The position numbers and the translations under genes are program-made. From NCBI GenBank assembly GCA_050013255.1, contig JBEKFP010000001.1, positions 1-64,000 of the forward strand: a stretch of 64,000 nt of DNA, in the 5' to 3' direction. The notes under the pieces were generated by a model, which ran no database searches, was not told where the DNA came from, and worked only from the letters and a program-made list of their open reading frames with translations. The stretch is from Candidatus Bathyarchaeia archaeon. GTDB lineage: Archaea; Thermoproteota; Bathyarchaeia; 40CM-2-53-6. Below are positions 37,279 to 45,929 of this stretch, one piece after another (the first letter of the stretch is position 1; each line of letters begins with the position of its first letter).

Positions 37279-37492
37279 CTTAGTTCATCCTCAAGGAATG
37301 GTTCTTGCCTGCGCTAACTCGGGCGCGTTCGCTTGGCACGATATAAAAGAATTACTACTACAATCGTAGTACCTTGGTTGTTCAATCGCACAAGCGGTGC
37401 TGGCTGATTTTGATTGATGAAAACTCATAGAAATTGATTCTTCCATAGAACAAGAATTATTTCCTCAGAAGACTTTCCGTGTCAGAATCACG

Positions 37493-37642
37493 ATGCCATC
37501 ACTCTCATTAAGAAGACTAGGGGCACTTCTAGGAATAATTGACATACTAGAGCTCGGGATACTACTCACCGACCAGATTTTACGAGGAGCAACTGACCAC
37601 TTCTACGCGCTCATTCTCTTCGTTATCATTGACTTCGTCTGA
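37493..37642 (+). pseudogene. truncated paralogue of the membrane protein at 43935-44429
   Basis: LLTDQILRGATDHFYALILFVIIDF vs LALDNVLRTFATLHYYALLAFVVVDI; stops after 49 aa. Confidence 0.6.
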
Positions 37643-37851
37643 CTATCCGACTGCTTGGGCAAACCTCGCATCTTTCTACGTATTTGGTTTACGCGGCTCG
37701 TTATTCACGGAAGGTGACGTATACATGTATGCTGCATGGAACTGATAGTGAAGTAGTCGTATGCCTTGCCTACGTCCTTGCGATGCACTACAATAGGTCG
37801 TTCATTCAGACTATTTCGTGAGGCGATTTAGCAAACATTAAGGCTTTTTCC

Positions 37852-37987
37852 TGTGTGTGCGCGCACACACACTAAAACGACGGTTCAAATTCCGTTGCCC
37901 GCACCATTAGAGCGCACACACACTAAACTACGAACGACGACGATTCAAATTACGACGCCCGCACCATCGATGGCACCCCCAAAAAAA
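37852..37987 (+). repeat. site A: 20-bp palindrome plus two tandem TTCAAAT-N5-YGCCCGCACCA units
   Basis: TGTGTGTGCGCGCACACACA; GCGCACACACACTAAA occurs twice. Confidence 0.85.
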
Positions 37988-38012
37988 CAATTCAAGCTAC
38001 TATTCCGATTAG

Positions 38013-39086
38013 TTACTCTTTCTCAATATCAGCAGCCAGTTTGCGAGTGCCCTGGGCATACATCTTCAGATTCCTCAATTCCTTCTGAGGATGATCTACG
38101 AGTTTCCATTCCTCACCTTCCCGGATGAACGTCCCTAACGATTGACCTGCAAAACTACGTTCAACAGCATAGATTGTTCCTTCACGGAACGTGGCATTTG
38201 GGAATAATTGTTTCAGAGAGGCCTCAGCAATATGATGTTCCGTACTAATCGGCAGTTCTATGAAAGGGGGTGCAAATCCTGATCCCCGCTTCAAGCCACC
38301 GGCCAACTCTGCCATGCTCGATAAGGAGACGGGAAACTTCGCCAGTTCAGCAGCTACCTCACCAGCTTTAATCACATCCTTAAACTCTGGGCGCATTACG
38401 AGATTCCTAATTGCTCGTTCCAGTCTATGCAGTAGGACCGCTGGATGACGAACAAGACCAAGCCTTCCAGAAGTGCTGACCACCGCGGCGTATTCACTTG
38501 AGTCTATGATTCGCCAGAAGAGATTTCGTATGTCTGCCTTTGAAACTTGACCCACTACCTCACTCTTGAACATGAGCGATGGGTCGTATCGCGAAGTGAT
38601 GAAAACAAGTTCAGCAAATCTATACCGTGCTTCACCACTGAATACACTGGTATCTATTTGCGGTGCAAAACACATTACGTGACCTAGCGAGTCGGATGCT
38701 ATTGCCGCTCCATACTTGCATCCGAGCGCTAGATTGTAGAGCATGTCTGAGGCGAAATTTAGAAAAAGGGCCTCATGCGGCTTGCTTGTTTGGTCTTGCC
38801 ACTTGCTTGCTTGATTGCGAATCGGCAACATGAAGTCGTCCACGCGAGACAGTATTTTTCCGTCTCCATCAACCAGCTTGACTAGGTTGCGCCGCGTAGA
38901 CGGCAGCTGATCCAAAACCTCAGCAACTCTATTCCTTTCCGATGCGCTAGGAACAGGAACTATAATCTGATCGGCTCCCAAGGACGTAAGCACAATCGCG
39001 GTCGCATTTAGCATGGACACTCTTACAGGCTGTCCTGACAGCCTACCCACAGCATCGATGTGTTCAAGAACTATCGGGTTCGGCAA
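38013..39086 (-). CDS. hypothetical protein, paralogue of 41071-42153
   Basis: 357-aa ORF; shares LTSLGADQI, LYNLALGCKYGA, GEARYR, FAPPFIE with the paralogue. Confidence 0.85.
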   Translation of the reverse strand: MPNPIVLEHIDAVGRLSGQPVRVSMLNATAIVLTSLGADQIIVPVPSASERNRVAEVLDQLPSTRRNLVKLVDGDGKILSRVDDFMLPIRNQASKWQDQTSKPHEALFLNFASDMLYNLALGCKYGAAIASDSLGHVMCFAPQIDTSVFSGEARYRFAELVFITSRYDPSLMFKSEVVGQVSKADIRNLFWRIIDSSEYAAVVSTSGRLGLVRHPAVLLHRLERAIRNLVMRPEFKDVIKAGEVAAELAKFPVSLSSMAELAGGLKRGSGFAPPFIELPISTEHHIAEASLKQLFPNATFREGTIYAVERSFAGQSLGTFIREGEEWKLVDHPQKELRNLKMYAQGTRKLAADIEKE

Positions 39087-39191
39087 CTGAACAGGCTCCG
39101 GTTGTCCACAGAGATTTAGTCATCCGAGATTTCAATGAATCGAAATCGGAAGTCTATCGGCGTTGTGAGGTCACTCTAGTCCACGAAGCTT

Positions 39192-39222
39192 TGTGTGGGT
39201 CTAATGGTGCGCACACACACAC
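39192..39222 (-). repeat. site B, inverted copy of site E
   Basis: Reverse complement reads GTGTGTGTGTGCGCACCATTAGACCCACACA. Confidence 0.85.
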
Positions 39223-39428
39223 TTTGAAACGGTTGGTGTAGGTGTTTGTTGTTAGGGGAGGTGTCCCCTAACAACCCCTCCCGGCCCGGTTCCGGGAATC
39301 TGACTACCTAGCATCACTCCCCGGACCCGGCCGCATGTGTCGTTTGAGTGAAATCCGGCCCGGAATCAGACTTTGCGGACTAATGGAACCAACAGGTCGG
39401 AAGAATCAGGAGTTCGAGACTTACGATC

Positions 39429-39980
39429 TTAATTCAATACTTCCCATGCAAACACTCTGACCGCTTGATGAACTGGATGATCTAGCCTTCTGTAGTTCTC
39501 CACCCTCTTCGAAAGTTTGACTCCAATCACTTTTTCACAAATTACCTCGAAGGAATCTATCAACGGGGTGAGGCTGATCTTGGGAGGGGCATGCTCGTAC
39601 CCAATGACTGCGACAGATTTGCGCTCGGAACCTTGAAGCTGCATCAACTTGAGGCAGTCACCTATGCTACTAACGTTTCCCGGATAAGGATGTAGGAGAT
39701 TGACGGACCAGTCTTCTGCTTCCTTCCCGTTGTCTCCGAATGGGCGAACAATCTTGAACTCAACAGCCCAGTCATCTGGGATGAGTAGATCGGGAGTTCT
39801 CTTTGTGACAGCGTTAGCCTTGTACTCTGGAAGATGATTCAGATGAGCAACGATAAGCTTGAGCAGCTGAGGTTCACCGTAGGGTCCCACGCCGGGTTTG
39901 AAAGAACGGAAAGGAATCCGTGACGCATCAACCTCGACGATGGCGTCAGTCACATCGTTCATGAGGTCATAGATATCCAT
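39429..39980 (-). CDS. PD-(D/E)xK nuclease-like protein
   Basis: RTPDLL...WAVEFK motif. Confidence 0.65.
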   Translation of the reverse strand: MDIYDLMNDVTDAIVEVDASRIPFRSFKPGVGPYGEPQLLKLIVAHLNHLPEYKANAVTKRTPDLLIPDDWAVEFKIVRPFGDNGKEAEDWSVNLLHPYPGNVSSIGDCLKLMQLQGSERKSVAVIGYEHAPPKISLTPLIDSFEVICEKVIGVKLSKRVENYRRLDHPVHQAVRVFAWEVLN

Positions 39981-40031
39981 GTACCGGGAATTAGACGGAG
40001 GATTCGTATTAGAGATTTGTTAGCTTGTATC

Positions 40032-40133
40032 TGTGCGCATCTTTAGTACTCTACACACGAGAACTGCGGTTCAAATTTCGTTGCCCGCACCAGCAATACC
40101 ACACACACTTAACGAGGAACAACGGTTCAAATC
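40032..40133 (+). repeat. site C
   Basis: CGGTTCAAATTTCGTTGCCCGCACCA (40067-40092) matches 37881-37906 at 25/26 positions; followed by CACACACAC. Confidence 0.85.
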
Positions 40134-40175
40134 GTCGATTTTTTATCCAGTGTTCCACCTCTCTATCCGAGACCC

Positions 40176-40973
40176 TTGCACCCGGCTCACGAAATCCCGC
40201 AACATGGCAACCTCGTTCCGGCCTATTCGCGCTTTATCTTGCTTACCTACCTCAACCAAGTCGCTCAAACCATCTCAGCCAAGTTAACACTCGACCATAC
40301 TAGAGATGAAAGAGGACTGACGGACGATCTCATCGAAGAGCTAGTTCGATGGGATCAAACAACCCTGCCAGAATCATTGCACTATGAGGGATGGAGACTT
40401 GAGTTGCGAATGAGTAAAGTCACACAGAAGTTAGAGAGTCAATTAGGAGCAGATCTCGGCCTTATCACAACCCTTAGCACACGTATGTGTCGCGTCGAAA
40501 AGGCTCTACTTTTCCAATGCAAGCGCCTTCACCCTACAGGACAATCTGAATTCACCCCTGAATCTTGCTACGGAGACCTTATGGAAGAACATGGTCGAAA
40601 GCAGGCGACAGATATGCTTGCTCATACACCCGCGAGTTTCTTCTTATTGTTTAACCCAAGAATCTCTCACGTGCACAATGATTTGGAACTAATCAATAGC
40701 AAGCCATTGAGAGAAGATCATGGAGTCAGTCTGCACGCCGGATTCCAAGATATTCTCATATTGCCTGCTACCACGCGCATTGGAATGCATAGCACGGGAG
40801 GCCTCGAAGATTTGTTTCCATATACAACATGCTTCTCTCAATTCATCGTTCAGGACGTCTTCCAATGTAACGTAGGTGATGCGTCCGCGTTGGCGCTGGC
40901 CACTGCTAGAAACAAGAACGAGGAATTTCGTGTCCGGATTTCTCTCGAAATGGACCTGCTCTTTGAAGACTAG
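40176..40973 (+). CDS. PD-(D/E)xK-like restriction-nuclease-fold protein
   Basis: E...ESQLGADLGL...LLFQCKRL (E-x3-GAD...QxK); start uncertain. Confidence 0.6.
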   Translation: MHPAHEIPQHGNLVPAYSRFILLTYLNQVAQTISAKLTLDHTRDERGLTDDLIEELVRWDQTTLPESLHYEGWRLELRMSKVTQKLESQLGADLGLITTLSTRMCRVEKALLFQCKRLHPTGQSEFTPESCYGDLMEEHGRKQATDMLAHTPASFFLLFNPRISHVHNDLELINSKPLREDHGVSLHAGFQDILILPATTRIGMHSTGGLEDLFPYTTCFSQFIVQDVFQCNVGDASALALATARNKNEEFRVRISLEMDLLFED

Positions 40974-40990
40974 ATTTGATTTGACGTCAG

Positions 40991-41032
40991 GCATTTTCTG
41001 GGGGGGTGGGTCAGCTGGTGCGCACACACACA
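40991..41032 (-). repeat. site D, inverted
   Basis: Reverse complement reads TGTGTGTGTGCGCACCAGCTGACCCACCCCCCCAGAAAATGC. Confidence 0.75.
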
Positions 41033-41070
41033 AAGCGAGGGACTTGGTCAACGTGGCCGCGGATTTTTTC

Positions 41071-42153
41071 CTACTTTCGATATCCTCGCACGATATTGGT
41101 AGCAGCTATTCGTGAGCGATCCGCGGACCTACGGAGGTGTTCTAGAGTTTCTTGTGGACGATAAGAAAGCTTCGCCTCTTCACCATCATTCAACCACTCA
41201 AGATATGATGCATTATTGAGGGTCGCTTCAGTGGCATAGATAGCTCCTTTTGGAGGGACTGCATCAGGAAATGATTCCGCGAGAGAAGCCATAGCAATCT
41301 GATAATCCGTAGTGATAGGAATTTCGATGAATGGAGGAGCAAATCTGTTTCCTCGTTTCAATCCGTCAACAGCTAACTCTGCCACCTTGGATAGTGGAAC
41401 CGGAAGATTGGCCAGTTCCGCTGCAGTCTCAGCGGCTCTAATTGCCAGTTTGAAATCTTCACGTTTCACAAGGCTTTCAATCGCTCTTTCCATCCTGCGC
41501 AATAACACGTCCGGTTTGCGAACTAAGCCCAGTTTTCCCGAGAGATTAACTACGGTTGAATATTCGCTCGACTCTATGATTTTCCAAAACAGACCGCGTA
41601 TGTTTGCCTCAGAAACTTGTCCAACCACCTCAGTCCCTCCAACAAGAGATGGGTTGTATCTTGATGCAATGAGTGCCAATTCAGCCAATCTGTATCGTGC
41701 CTCACCATGAAACAATCCTGGATCGATTATTGGGATGAACTCCATCATATGGGTCAAGTCATAGCATGCGACAGAGGCTCCGTATTTGCAGCCAAGAGCA
41801 AGGTTGTACAAGGCGTTTAGCGCAAAAGTCACAAAAGTGTCTTCTGGCCACTTCGATGCCTGTTTCCCAATTGGCATTAGGTAATCGCGAACGCGGGACA
41901 GTATTTTTCCATCCTCATCGATCAGTCTTATTCGATTTCGACGAGTGGTTGGTACTTGCTGCAGGGCCTCAGCAACCCTTTCTCTTTCATTTGACCCTGG
42001 AACAGGAACGAGAATCTGATCTGCTCCCAATGATGTAAGTAGGATCGCAGACGAATTGAGGGTGGACGCTTTTACAGGTTTGCCTCCCAATTCTCCCAGA
42101 ACGTCTTTGTGTTCAAGAACTACCGGATTTTCCAACTCCCACGCCCCTCGCAC
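41071..42153 (-). CDS. hypothetical protein, paralogue of 38013-39086
   Basis: 360-aa ORF alignable by eye over its full length with the paralogue. Confidence 0.85.
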   Translation of the reverse strand: MRGAWELENPVVLEHKDVLGELGGKPVKASTLNSSAILLTSLGADQILVPVPGSNERERVAEALQQVPTTRRNRIRLIDEDGKILSRVRDYLMPIGKQASKWPEDTFVTFALNALYNLALGCKYGASVACYDLTHMMEFIPIIDPGLFHGEARYRLAELALIASRYNPSLVGGTEVVGQVSEANIRGLFWKIIESSEYSTVVNLSGKLGLVRKPDVLLRRMERAIESLVKREDFKLAIRAAETAAELANLPVPLSKVAELAVDGLKRGNRFAPPFIEIPITTDYQIAMASLAESFPDAVPPKGAIYATEATLNNASYLEWLNDGEEAKLSYRPQETLEHLRRSADRSRIAATNIVRGYRK

Positions 42154-42238
42154 TACCCGATATCAAGCTAGGCTCTACTCGTTCTCCTCTGAATAGAGAT
42201 TTCCATTCAGCTCAAATCTTGAATCGTCGTCCGTCTAA

Positions 42239-42334
42239 GTGTGTGTGTGCGCACCATTAGAGCCACACACACAAAATAACGCCTGAACTGACGGTTCAAA
42301 TCACTATCAGTACCACACACACGAAACGCGCACC
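42239..42334 (+). repeat. site E
   Basis: GTGTGTGTGTGCGCACCATTAGAGCCACACACAC...ACGGTTCAAATCACTATCAGTACCACACACAC. Confidence 0.85.
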
Positions 42335-42459
42335 TCTTTTGATTGGGAATCAATCATAGGGCTGAAGATTTCGCACTGGTGGTTTGTTTATTCACAGTTG
42401 AGAATTGTTCATCGCGAAATCCGGCTTCGACAAGCCCTCCTGTCGTCGGGGACGTTAGG

Positions 42460-43896
42460 CTATAATCGATCAAGAACTGGGTGGTGCAGCCCCTCGTGAA
42501 GCGTCTTCTCCCAGAATCTTGCACCCCGTAGCATCTGCCAAAGGGCTCTGAGAACCGGTAGACCCCAGAGAATCCAATAGAACATTATCGTGGAAACTGC
42601 GAGTCCGTAGTAATGTACTTTCTCCGTTATTCCATTGACCGTTTTGCCAACCGTTGCGGCAATTCCCCGAACTGTCAGTAAGATGTGCCACAATAATAGA
42701 AGCATGTTGAAAGTGCTGAGGGTGGCAAGCCACGGGTTGTCCACAACGGGGAGGAGTGAAGTTGGCAGCGAAATTCCTGAGGCTAACTGAATTGGCAAAA
42801 GAATAGCGACCAGCAAAGATAGCACCATCAATGGGTAGCCTATTATTGAGAGAAAAGGAACGAAGAAACCGAGCAGATAGTAGAACATAAGAAAACCGAT
42901 TCCAAACCGCCGTCTAAGTGGGAAATCTCTCCAGTACTTTCCTAGTCGCCCCACGGTGTAGAGAGTGCCCCGTATCCAGCGCGTTCGCTGATTAGCCCAT
43001 CCACCTTCGTTCCGTGTCCTCAGCAGCGTCCTAGGTGCCTCTTCATAGGTATCCACGTCGATAATGCCAACCCGATAGCCGTATCCGTAGAGTCGAAGCC
43101 CAAGCTCCAAATCCTCCGTAACGTTCGTTGGGTCCCACCCTCCAAGGGAATTCAAGACATCACGGCGGATGTAGTAGCAGGTTCCCCCAAGAGCCACTGG
43201 AAGACCTCTCATCCGAACCTTTGGAAGAAGCCATGCAAACCAAAATGCATAGTCCCCGACGGACTGAAGCGACAACCAACTGTCCCTGTAATTGATGAAC
43301 CTAAGCCTTCCTTGGACAGCGTCGAACCCATTAACTTGCAGACACTGAGCTGCCTTTCGAAAAACCAAAGGATCACCTTGCACATCCTCAGCATCAACCA
43401 CTGTCACTATCTCGCCTGTGGCCATTGGCAATGCGTAAGTGAGGGCTCGCGGCTTCGAATCAGGCAACTGCTCCGCGTCAATATCAGCCCATTTGGCTCC
43501 TCGTTGTCTGACTTGGGAGATAAGTAGGTTCCATGATGGATCGCTATTGTTTGGAACCACAAGATGGGTCACGCCTAATTCTCGCGACATCCGGTCCGCT
43601 ATTACGCCTGTGTTCATGTCATCAGAATCCGTAACTAGCAATATCTCCTTCTTTTCGACGGGATAATCCAGAGAGGTGAGTGAGAGAAGACTGCGCCTAA
43701 GGACCGATTCTGGCTCATTCCTTGCTGCAAGAATAGCAGTTATTCTTGGCAGGTCCGCCGACCCGTCCGGAAGAGGATTCGCTGCGTCAACGAAAAGTCG
43801 TTCACGGCCTGAACACCCTAAGAAGAAGATCTTGGCGTTCCAAACCAAATAGAGAATCTGTGTTACAACTATGAAAAGGAGTACGTCAGCAGGCAC
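42460..43896 (-). CDS. processive membrane GT2 glycosyltransferase (cellulose-synthase-like)
   Basis: KPRAL, DAED, TED, QRTRW; C-terminal TM helices. Confidence 0.9.
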   Translation of the reverse strand: MPADVLLFIVVTQILYLVWNAKIFFLGCSGRERLFVDAANPLPDGSADLPRITAILAARNEPESVLRRSLLSLTSLDYPVEKKEILLVTDSDDMNTGVIADRMSRELGVTHLVVPNNSDPSWNLLISQVRQRGAKWADIDAEQLPDSKPRALTYALPMATGEIVTVVDAEDVQGDPLVFRKAAQCLQVNGFDAVQGRLRFINYRDSWLSLQSVGDYAFWFAWLLPKVRMRGLPVALGGTCYYIRRDVLNSLGGWDPTNVTEDLELGLRLYGYGYRVGIIDVDTYEEAPRTLLRTRNEGGWANQRTRWIRGTLYTVGRLGKYWRDFPLRRRFGIGFLMFYYLLGFFVPFLSIIGYPLMVLSLLVAILLPIQLASGISLPTSLLPVVDNPWLATLSTFNMLLLLWHILLTVRGIAATVGKTVNGITEKVHYYGLAVSTIMFYWILWGLPVLRALWQMLRGARFWEKTLHEGLHHPVLDRL

Positions 43897-43934
43897 CTAG
43901 GAACAGCTCAACAGAGAATGATCTCAGATTGGTG

Positions 43935-44429
43935 TCATTTTGCTTTGGGGGAGAAGGGATGGCCGAGCTTCCACGCGATGGCTATGACTGCGAGCTCTAG
44001 TATGAGAGTAAGGTCAATAAGTAGCCCTGGGACCCCGGGAGGGTTTCCGAAACTGACGGACAGGCTGCTAGCGGGGTTAAACAGATAGTCGGCAAACTGC
44101 CCATAGCTTGAGAATCGATAAACTGAGGCTTGCGAGACGTCAGCAAATTGCAAAATGACCCTGAGTACGCACCATATGATCGCAATCGAGAAAACCATCT
44201 TCACCGGTCTAGCAAGAACATAGATCCCAACCGCGATGTCAACAACTACGAATGCTAACAGCGCATAGTAGTGTAGGGTCGCAAAAGTTCGCAGAACATT
44301 ATCAAGAGCCAATAGTGCAATTCCCAAGATGGCGCTAAGGATGAGCAACGCCCCACATGCTTTCGAAGCCCTGGGGCCTTGAGGAACTGACAATTCAACC
44401 CACTTTAGCAAGGAAAGCGGGGGCGTCAT
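43935..44429 (-). CDS. 4-TM membrane protein
   Basis: Hydrophobic helices. Confidence 0.7.
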   Translation of the reverse strand: MTPPLSLLKWVELSVPQGPRASKACGALLILSAILGIALLALDNVLRTFATLHYYALLAFVVVDIAVGIYVLARPVKMVFSIAIIWCVLRVILQFADVSQASVYRFSSYGQFADYLFNPASSLSVSFGNPPGVPGLLIDLTLILELAVIAIAWKLGHPFSPKAK

Positions 44430-44507
44430 ATATATTTATTACTACGCTTGTAGTAGCTTTAATGCATAGCATAGTTTATGAAGTGGAAAGTGTGTTGTGG
44501 CAAAATC

Positions 44508-44885
44508 ATGACAGATTCTGAGTTCCTCAAGGCCTTGACATCAACTGAAGCGATAGACCTTACGGTTAAGGATCAGAAAACTGGACGAAGCAGCTCGAGA
44601 CCAGTTTGGTTTGTCATGGAAAGCGAAAAGCTGTATCTTCTCCCAATGACAGGGTCCGACTCAGAATGGTATAAGAATATACTCGTCAACGCTGAAGTGC
44701 AAATCTCTGCCAGGAGTCCATTAAGAGTGTTAGGGATGAAGGGCAGAAAACTAACCGCGAACACCAAACCGATACAAGCCTCAGAAGTAGCGGACGTGGT
44801 TCAGAAGTTCAAATCGAAATATGGAGCAGCAGAAATTAGCAAGACTTACTCCAAACTTGATGCAGCTGTGCAGGTTCTGATCTAG
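44508..44885 (+). CDS. deazaflavin/F420-dependent nitroreductase-like split-barrel protein
   Basis: IDLTV..KTGR...PVWFV...SEWYKN. Confidence 0.75.
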   Translation: MTDSEFLKALTSTEAIDLTVKDQKTGRSSSRPVWFVMESEKLYLLPMTGSDSEWYKNILVNAEVQISARSPLRVLGMKGRKLTANTKPIQASEVADVVQKFKSKYGAAEISKTYSKLDAAVQVLI

Positions 44886-45067
44886 ACGCATACGAAATAA
44901 AAGTCGTCATCCGGTACATAACTCCGAGTTCCCCATGCTGGGGAGTGACAATATTCGAAGCCAAGAGTGAGGAAGCAGTGTTCAACGCACAACTTCTTTT
45001 GGGCACTGAGGGTCAACCGGTCTCGTTGATCGATGGAGGAGACGTCTGTGTATTGGCGCTGAGAAGC

Positions 45068-45247
45068 TTACTTGCTCTTCATGAGGTCGTAGTCGAGACC
45101 TATCCATATCACGCTGGCCACCCCGATAATTACGCCTGCAGCCAGCCATGGCAGGTACGTATAGCTAGTCCAAGTCCACCATAAATCTGCAATGATAATT
45201 ATGATTCCCATCAAGATTGCAAGGTAGGACTTCGCATTAGTAGTCAT
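45068..45247 (-). CDS. 2-TM microprotein, 59 aa
   Basis: Hand-translated MTTNAKSYLAILMGIIIIIADLWWTWTSYTYLPWLAAGVIIGVASVIWIGLDYDLMKSK. Confidence 0.65.
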   Translation of the reverse strand: MTTNAKSYLAILMGIIIIIADLWWTWTSYTYLPWLAAGVIIGVASVIWIGLDYDLMKSK

Positions 45248-45929
45248 TCAAAATCCAACAAGTGTGTTTGCTTGATCATCGGCTAAAAAATCTTTGGTTA
45301 AGTTGTCCAGACGATCTTGTTTGCAGTTCAAGTCGACAATCCGTTGGCAATCCGATTTTGGAGACGCATACGATGCAGAATCGGAAATAGTCAGGTTCCT
45401 CGGCCAGAAGGAACTGAAGTCTACTGTCTTTAGAAAGATACCTAGTCTGTCACCATCGAATGCCCGTGCACTGTCGGACTCGCCCAAGGTTACTGGTTCG
45501 ATTCCTCGCATGTATAAATACCATCTGTAAAATTCTCTTTGCAGAAGGACAGATTCCAGCTACACGAATGGGCCATGACTGGCTAAGTCTACCGATTGCT
45601 TGTTCATTTTCGCATGCCCCAAAGAGTTCTACTCCGCGTTCCACAGATAATAGACTTTTCAAACAAAATCCCTCCAGCATAATGTAAAGGAAAGTGGGAC
45701 TCTACTTACTACATACGTGCGCGGTAGCTTTCTGCTCGTTGCAATATGCGATTGAGGTTTGCACTCTAACGGAGAGTAGTTAAGGTGGTTTTCGTAGGTA
45801 TTGGTGCGCGGCATGACGTGGATTGACCTGCACCGAGGCGCCTCACGCCAGATGAGGAGATGCATCTCCGCTGACCGCAATAACCCTTATAGTGAATAGG
45901 TGGTTCTTGCCGTCTCGAACGGTGCCCGA

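Follow-up and report, generated by a model that had tools for sequence, protein, structure and literature searches.

A mobile four-gene unit with casposon-like insertion junctions in a Candidatus Bathyarchaeia genome

Organization of the locus

The locus lies in a 64,000-nt window, the whole stretch of DNA examined, on contig JBEKFP010000001.1 of a Candidatus Bathyarchaeia archaeon (assembly GCA_050013255.1). Here four open reading frames (ORFs) of 357, 183, 265 and 360 aa are set between short sites of one family, and genes 1 and 4 are paralogues with 57% identity. The array is very probably a natural, enzyme-less, composite casposon derivative, casposon-like in its working though not a member by its defining genes. 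The host genome is designated G000, other G labels refer to related genomes and L labels to contigs or loci. C1, C2 and C3 followed by coordinates, "Cas1" or "element" are contigs of G000; sites C1 and C2 are cores in the window.

A sequence-only reading had described five alternately oriented sites, A to E, in the intergenic gaps. All are present at the places and in the orientations described, with six exact motif matches in the window against 0.05 expected, but the window holds seven cores: A1 (37900, +), A2 (37960, +), B (39211, -), the decayed C1 (40036, +), C2 (40086, +), D (41022, -) and E (42250, +). A further decayed core lies near 42302. Each site has a 14-bp core made of CGCACCA and seven variable bases; the spacer is seven bases rather than the seven to eight first read, and the TTAGA taken for a right arm is part of the core. 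To the right of the core is an element tip, mostly CACACAC, and to the left either a second tip or an 18-bp leader. The leader carries GTTCAA at positions -17 to -12 relative to the core, a conservation partly built into the search pattern, and the A1 leader (GGTTCAAAT...GCC) has the spacing of the tRNA-Gly 3' end at C1:1132477. In tip-core-tip sites the 14 bp separate 8-bp tips, whose types, (CA)n, poly-C and CCG, are interchangeable.

B matches the reverse complement of E at 94% over 36 nt, with one mismatch over 33, and the match first noted between A and C holds for A1 and C2, which are identical at 25 of 26 positions covering the leader and the start of the core. Homology between site copies stops exactly at the core, as expected from the earlier view that arms are exchanged there. 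The terminal inverted repeats of the unit are imperfect and about 31-37 bp long. Its flanking duplication, A1/E, is 14 bp, although a one-base ambiguity at the left tip also permits a reading of 13 bp; among 88 strong sites this 14-mer occurs only at A1 and E. No Cas1 match and no tyrosine or serine recombinase match was found in the window, in line with the earlier remark that it holds no integrase. The features are collected in Table 1.

Table 1. Features of the array and its surroundings (window coordinates)
Feature	Position	Strand	Basis or remark
Accessory island with array	37376..45673	.	Absent in related species; outer borders approximate, no intact site there
Older element end: two tips head to head, no core between, then subterminal repeat	37852..37881	+	Sequence; also in empty allele
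A1 leader, 18 bp, tRNA T-loop-like	37882..37899	+	tRNA-Gly 3'-end spacing; length as in the A. boonei leader (PMC5137440)
A1, left copy of 14-bp target duplication	37900..37913	+	Identical to E; single copy in empty allele
Mobile four-gene unit of 4,336 bp without a transposase	37914..42249	.	Absent in L260-L262; near SNP-free interior
Left terminal inverted repeat: (CA)n tip and subterminal repeat	37914..37950	+	Inverted relative to 42219-42249
A2, built-in leader and 14-bp target within left end, new landing site	37942..37973	+	Sequence
Module 1: poly-C tip, gene 1 (38013-39086), CA tip	37974..39197	-	Homologue by same poly-C tip type in L263
B, internal 14-bp core, tips on both sides	39198..39211	-	14-mer and adjoining end as at casposon junction C1:1330272
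Copy of end of the Cas1-encoding element on contig C1	39212..39415	+	83% identical to C1:1330273-1330479; about 130 bp also match the other end
Gene 2, 183 aa	39429..39980	-	Putatively restriction-endonuclease-like
Site C1, decayed core	40036..40049	+	Low profile score, 16-20
C2, built-in leader and 14-bp target	40068..40099	+	25/26 match to A1 leader and core start
Gene 3, 265 aa	40176..40973	+	Putatively PD-(D/E)xK-fold nuclease-like
D, internal 14-bp core, tips on both sides	41009..41022	-	Gene-4-side tip joined to other cores in L256, L264
Module 4: gene 4 (41071-42153) between two CA tips	41023..42249	-	Homologues in L256, L264
Right terminal inverted repeat of unit	42219..42249	-	Inverted relative to left end
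E, right copy of 14-bp target duplication	42250..42263	+	Identical to A1
End of earlier element, leader, decayed core; second variable point	42264..42322	+	Three continuations in same-species contigs

Filled and empty alleles

The empty allele was located by searching metagenomes for the predicted empty junction, which is present in three same-species contigs or assemblies from peat (L260-L262). Their left flank is 98.6-99.1% identical to the window over 5-12 kb, and across the junction 85 of 85 bases agree with the window once the 4,336-bp insert and a single 14-mer are taken out. This exact empty allele defines 37914-42249 as a single unit that has inverted ends and is flanked by a 14-bp duplication, of which A1 and E are the pair. 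Since L260-L262 also differ from the window just downstream of the empty site, they represent a separate haplotype and not a collapsed assembly.

Thirty filled contigs of the same species show one gene order and one orientation. The inversion or shuffling of modules proposed earlier was thus not borne out, though contigs drop rare variants and low-level inversion among these 30 could be missed; the joints detected are cross-matches between short repeats and carry no information on inversion. The contigs vary instead in whether they have the four-gene block, always as a whole and together with the 14-bp duplication, or lack it. In seven contigs, not all independent, the unit differs by 0-1 single-nucleotide polymorphism (SNP), against 8-106 in 2.9-5.0 kb of flank (0.3-2.4% divergence). 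This pattern points to recent gain and spread of the unit. At 37797-42318, the tract free of SNPs extends slightly beyond the unit. At the point near 42302 there are three continuations, represented by the window, L228/L232 and L260-L262.

The island as a whole (8.3 kb) is absent in related species: G014, with a flank gene 91% identical, joins the flanks directly, and the island is also missing from G004, G018, G021, G022 and G015. At its left edge (37376) a 27-bp stretch missing in the window is present in several same-species contigs. The coreless junction at 37852-37873 is a perfect 20-bp palindrome of two head-to-head tips, with a similar junction in one other case, L010; it may reflect loss of a core or end-to-end joining.

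Sites and target duplications across genomes

The motif is not confined to the locus. G000 has about 100 sites in about 30 clusters, against none in shuffled sequence, and 96 of 99 lie outside long ORFs even though these make up 78% of the genome, in keeping with the earlier claim that the sites bound mobile gene modules. Genome-wide, a tip is found no more than 75 bp upstream of 16 of the 45 leader sites, against a background of 1.6%. Leaders placed just inside a tip indicate that many ends bring their own landing site, and A2 and C2 are examples.

Within G000 clusters, identical cores in the same orientation occur 14 times against 3.9 expected, and without the commonest core 10 times against 1.3 (0 of 5000 shuffles), whereas identical cores in opposite orientation are not enriched (2 against 1.3). 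Ten identical-core pairs, leader first and tip last, enclose 0.6 to 16.6 kb; A1/E is one of them, and five of the ten bracketed units contain opposite inner cores. The pooled test in relatives (same orientation 20 against 4.4, opposite 9 against 4.0) is inflated by genome-specific core bias, and we therefore rely on the test in G000.

The site pattern occurs in 111 genome records, most labelled soil or peat Ca. Bathyarchaeia. Within the host's genus 19 of 22 genomes have it, as do 4 of 5 in one sister genus and 3 genomes elsewhere in the order, and in three other genera it was absent from all 9 genomes; the tip-core-tip pattern gave no match among viral contigs. Six matches stand under bacterial record titles (L018, L019, L038, L048, L067, L098); some map to genomes placed in the host's archaeal genus, and mislabelled records or chance matches are likely. 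G046 has one 14-mer in 17 of its 18 cores, apparently through amplification of a single target; this genome is 96% complete and has no Cas1 match.

Cargo near sites is mixed genome-wide (ATPases, transporters, oxidoreductases). The commonest neighbour is a family of about 235 aa resembling a KaiC/RecA-type ATPase, with 10 copies in G000 and 17 ORFs in L001-L111. A unit of about 330 bp without a clear gene occurs at C1:197618-197948 and C1:633236-633566 in copies 90% identical, and also right of the empty site in L260-L262. An IS110-like transposase recurs near sites in relatives (L020 and five other loci); none was found in G000.

Cas1 genes and their elements

G000 encodes two solo Cas1 genes, on contigs C1 (C1:1333417-1334640) and C3, neither linked to other cas genes, and has no Cas2 match. 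The C1 protein finds the M. mazei casposase as its best match (PDB 6OPM, E 4e-74) over residues 4-402, that is, its full length including a helix-turn-helix (HTH) at the C terminus. Both proteins retain the catalytic E, H and D, and their clade is separate from Cas1 of the CRISPR type with support of 100/100. As Cas1 is missing from the window and present twice elsewhere in the genome, the unit can only be a non-autonomous derivative.

Both Cas1 elements are bounded by junctions of the same kind as the array, with leader, duplication and tips. The C1 element (16.3 kb, inverted ends of about 130 bp starting with CA tips) lies between two identical 14-mers in direct orientation, leader first, and the C3 element (11 kb, CCG-type tips) is likewise between two identical 14-mers. 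Cas1 in G014, G004, G059 and G002 is found within the same bracket of leader, duplication and tip. Tip type tracks Cas1 subclade, firmly for three CCG-tipped enzymes (100/100) and weakly for the others. A GGGGATAT tip also follows the same core, and GGGGAT/GGGGTAT tips follow cores at G000 C1:716091, L206, L211 and L219, with a separate Cas1 subclade near some of them; this tip type, GGGGATAT included, resembles the ends of described casposons.

No PolB family was found in the 19 ORFs of both G000 Cas1 elements, although a very divergent PolB could escape the search. PF00136 matches are confined to contig C2, PF03175 has none, and none of the four genes of the unit is a PolB. The C3 element (L204) carries HNH and TIR-domain genes, and the C1 element (L265) AIPR, Hjc-like, HATPase and DndB-like genes.

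Proposed origin of the array

The sites are very probably insertion junctions of a family-2-type casposase, a Cas1 transposase whose activity is predicted from sequence. The M. mazei enzyme makes a 14-bp duplication starting with CGCA and requires upstream bases 12-17 (PMC6977970), which are GTTCAA here, and the A. boonei target consists of the duplicated segment and a required 18-bp T-loop leader (PMC5137440). The casposase would read an 18-bp T-loop-like leader and CGCA, join two (CA)n-tipped donor ends 14 bp apart at the target, and repair would copy the 14 bp. A non-autonomous donor, 37914-42249, would have landed at A1 and thereby produced E, presumably moved in trans by the C1 casposase, which has CA tips. 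The enzyme in trans of the sequence-only reading is retained, with the evidence favoring a Cas1 casposase over a recombinase of dif or shufflon type.

Simple stacking would give one core direction; B and D are reversed, and a reverse leader is absent. On balance we favor old junctions inside a composite as the source of the alternating inner sites. Any two tips might serve as ends, an idea drawn from the A. boonei enzyme, for which only the last five bases of the element end are critical (PMC6614799). Blocks cut from older arrays would then carry old junctions (B, D) and could land either way, so that a composite donor would leave inner sites alternating. Ends with their own leader and target (A2, C2) would provide fresh landing sites, allowing arrays to nest and to spread away from tRNA genes. 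That the modules are casposon pieces with their tips kept is suggested by the copied arm at B, the joints of gene 4, and the contexts of the gene 1 and gene 3 homologues. The gene 1 homologue (73% nt identity) belongs to a unit that also has a TIR-domain gene (L263) and ends there beside a poly-C tip of the type found here, and a gene 3 homologue (62%) lies two genes from Cas1 in L257. Gene 4 homologues (87-90% nt identity) in L256 and L264 lose the match at the tip/core border; L256 begins with a Cas1 fragment, continues with an Mrr-like gene and has gene 4 as its last gene, followed by the tip. In three sources this combination of gene 4 and tip adjoins three different cores.

Several observations weigh against a casposase origin. 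In its right half the core varies less than expected of a random target, with one 14-mer in 13 of 88 strong sites, and the 3' terminal base of the ends is G here and C in the M. mazei substrate (PMC6977970). Cas1 was not found in eight site-bearing genomes (G011, G013, G016, G018, G019, G021, G046, G048). No second locus with the 4.3-kb block was observed. The inner cores lack duplicated pairs (A2 and C1 differ, as do C2 and E), and the inner history of the array is for this reason a reconstruction. The empty allele may come from a single strain represented by all three contigs, and its state may either predate insertion or follow precise excision (PMC10359463). Finally, a filled and empty pair with a direct repeat is also the outcome expected of a recombinase.

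The best surviving alternative, which we regard as unlikely, accepts casposase-made sites and attributes the alternation and the empty allele to later recombination, homologous or slipped, among the repeats of 30-60 bp. Cores are decayed or deleted at 37852, 40036 and 42302, mini-casposons in E. coli were flipped by recombination between inverted ends (PMC5137440), and the slight excess width of the SNP-free tract is consistent with homologous recombination having spread the unit. Exchange between inverted sites, however, swaps arms and cannot make opposite cores, and the SNP-free interior argues for a recent gain rather than an old block lost in one lineage.

It is improbable that a trans-acting tyrosine recombinase uses the sites as dif- or att-like sequences to excise, integrate or invert modules. 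Tip-core-tip sites do resemble 11-8-11 inverted sites, neighbouring sites are opposite in 26 cases and in the same orientation in 19, some relatives' integrases use tRNA-Leu ends in CGCACCA, and L022/L077 have, at about 450 bp from a tip-core-tip site, one short and divergent gene for a tyrosine recombinase. The three tyrosine recombinases of G000, in contrast, each lie at another tRNA end in their own island, away from the clusters. The uniform orientation in the 30 contigs also speaks against this explanation, as do cores that are highly diverse yet paired in direct orientation, leader first, and what lies between the paired cores is Cas1, not Int. A scattered MITE/REP-like repeat (miniature inverted-repeat transposable element/repetitive extragenic palindrome) or tRNA-like RNA processing signal that moves no cargo, as the roughly 100 copies and the 16 clusters with a single strong site might suggest, is highly improbable in view of the filled/empty pair, the break of cargo homology at tips, the paired cores and a T-stem that is not kept (fold z 0.28 and -1.04).

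The search for a tyrosine recombinase in relatives yielded, from 30 loci, only tRNA-end matches and one leader site, and this candidate was rejected; for serine recombinases there was a single weak match below the cut-off. Separately, L114 and L116-L119 represent an element family that sits at tRNA-Leu/Ser ends and encodes a XerA-like integrase together with a small upstream gene, and the sequence after its att site resembles that upstream of leader sites C1:1346569 and C1:1352968.

Cargo and neighbouring genes

None of the four genes has a significant match in Pfam, PADLOC or NCBIfam. Gene 2 contains an invariant P63-D64...E74-x-K76 and has about 2,000 homologues, of which the named ones are bacterial; its nearest named Atlas clusters, MunI and AccI (0.76-0.78), are a lead only. 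The motif suggests a restriction-endonuclease-like protein. Gene 3 has invariant D93 and Q114-x-K116, and its model resembles Hjc, RecU and restriction enzymes with middling scores (Z 7-7.8), consistent with a nuclease-like protein of PD-(D/E)xK fold. A QueH/HUP-type fold for the gene 4 model (predicted local distance difference test 78) was considered unconvincing at a best Z of 6.1, and gene 4 has no usable match in the Atlas. A defence role, as first suggested, is plausible for the cargo here, two genes fitting it by their putative fold, but genome-wide the cargo is mixed. Apparent truncations of gene 3 (130 aa) and gene 1 (333 aa) in some contigs turned out to be alternative gene calls on identical DNA.

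Elsewhere in the island, 42460-43896 encodes a family 2 glycosyltransferase whose close homologue among 40 relatives is found only in G048, of another family, where it is split. The non-coding segment 45808-45895 is 91-94% conserved across the genus and has a terminal stem and C, D', C' and D box-like words; it looks like an archaeal C/D guide RNA, with no Rfam match and no clear target found. An Rfam search of 36-47 kb gave no match, and a sigma-70 promoter/terminator scan, a model unsuited to an archaeon, remained at chance level.

Novelty and implications

Casposons, tandem stacks and engineered mini-casposons are already known; the filled/empty pair, the recency signal and the tracking of Cas1 subclade by tip type are new. 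In the literature searched, coverage of which is incomplete, we found no natural non-autonomous casposon and none from Bathyarchaeia. Casposons have been described as rare and invariably associated with a DNA polymerase (PMC6452270). Here, Cas1 elements with no detected polymerase, together with many natural enzyme-less units, appear to be a main route for accessory genes in a widespread soil and peat archaeal lineage, and the filled/empty pair is a natural record of recent mobility of such a unit. Ends with their own leader and target illustrate a way for leader-repeat-insert arrays to multiply, a point relevant to the origin of CRISPR arrays. The compact enzyme, 32-bp target and short ends make the system testable as a site-specific tool for kilobase inserts.

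More tentatively, and with rather less confidence than in the composite itself, casposase-driven gene capture may operate here: enzyme-less units with their own landing sites would build arrays of whole genes that could expand, become nested and be moved as composites, a source of adaptive genes for the host, in this case nuclease-like ones. If true, this would be an integron-like system built on the chemistry of CRISPR adaptation, a living intermediate between casposons and CRISPR arrays.

Comparison with known systems

The closest relatives in working are the family 2 casposons of Methanosarcina mazei (MetMaz; 6OPM; PMC4779613, PMC6977970, PMC10359463). Common to both are a casposase with a C-terminal HTH (here in trans), a CGCA-led 14-bp duplication, a tRNA T-loop leader, inverted ends, tandem stacking at one target and a single target left at the empty site. 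Unlike MetMaz, the unit has no Cas1 or PolB match and the host's Cas1 elements also lack a PolB match; tips are (CA)n, poly-C or CCG, and many ends have their own target. The genome has about 100 junctions rather than a few, and inner junctions alternate.

AciBoo-C1 of Aciduliprofundum boonei and the engineered mini-casposons (PMC5137440, PMC6614799) share the 18-bp T-loop leader with a duplicated segment. In these constructs a marker gene between two ends is integrated, and only the last five end bases are critical; engineered mini-casposons are also moved in vivo by a chromosomal enzyme and stack at the target (PMC10359463). The A. boonei mini-casposons are laboratory constructs with a tRNA-Pro target and a 15-bp duplication, whereas the present units occur naturally and their targets are mostly other than tRNA genes.

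Other systems resemble the array in layout. The modules are of one or two genes between alternately oriented short sites, with an enzyme in trans, an arrangement shared with the pdif modules of Acinetobacter. The sites differ, being junctions of leader, duplication and tip instead of 28-bp XerC-6-XerD sites with asymmetric conserved arms, and no Xer candidate is tied to them. A shufflon differs in that no adjacent invertase gene is present here and the segments have one orientation across 30 contigs. Integrons and CRISPR arrays likewise hold inserts arrayed between repeats, and CRISPR insertion is leader-directed and uses Cas1 chemistry. The array differs from integrons, where IntI lies beside attI and attC cassettes share one orientation, in having no IntI match in the window and alternating sites; with CRISPR arrays it would share, by analogy, leader-directed insertion by Cas1 chemistry, but with no Cas2 match. 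Compared with both, the inserts here measure 0.05-16 kb and carry their own ends, and the repeats are non-uniform in sequence and direction.

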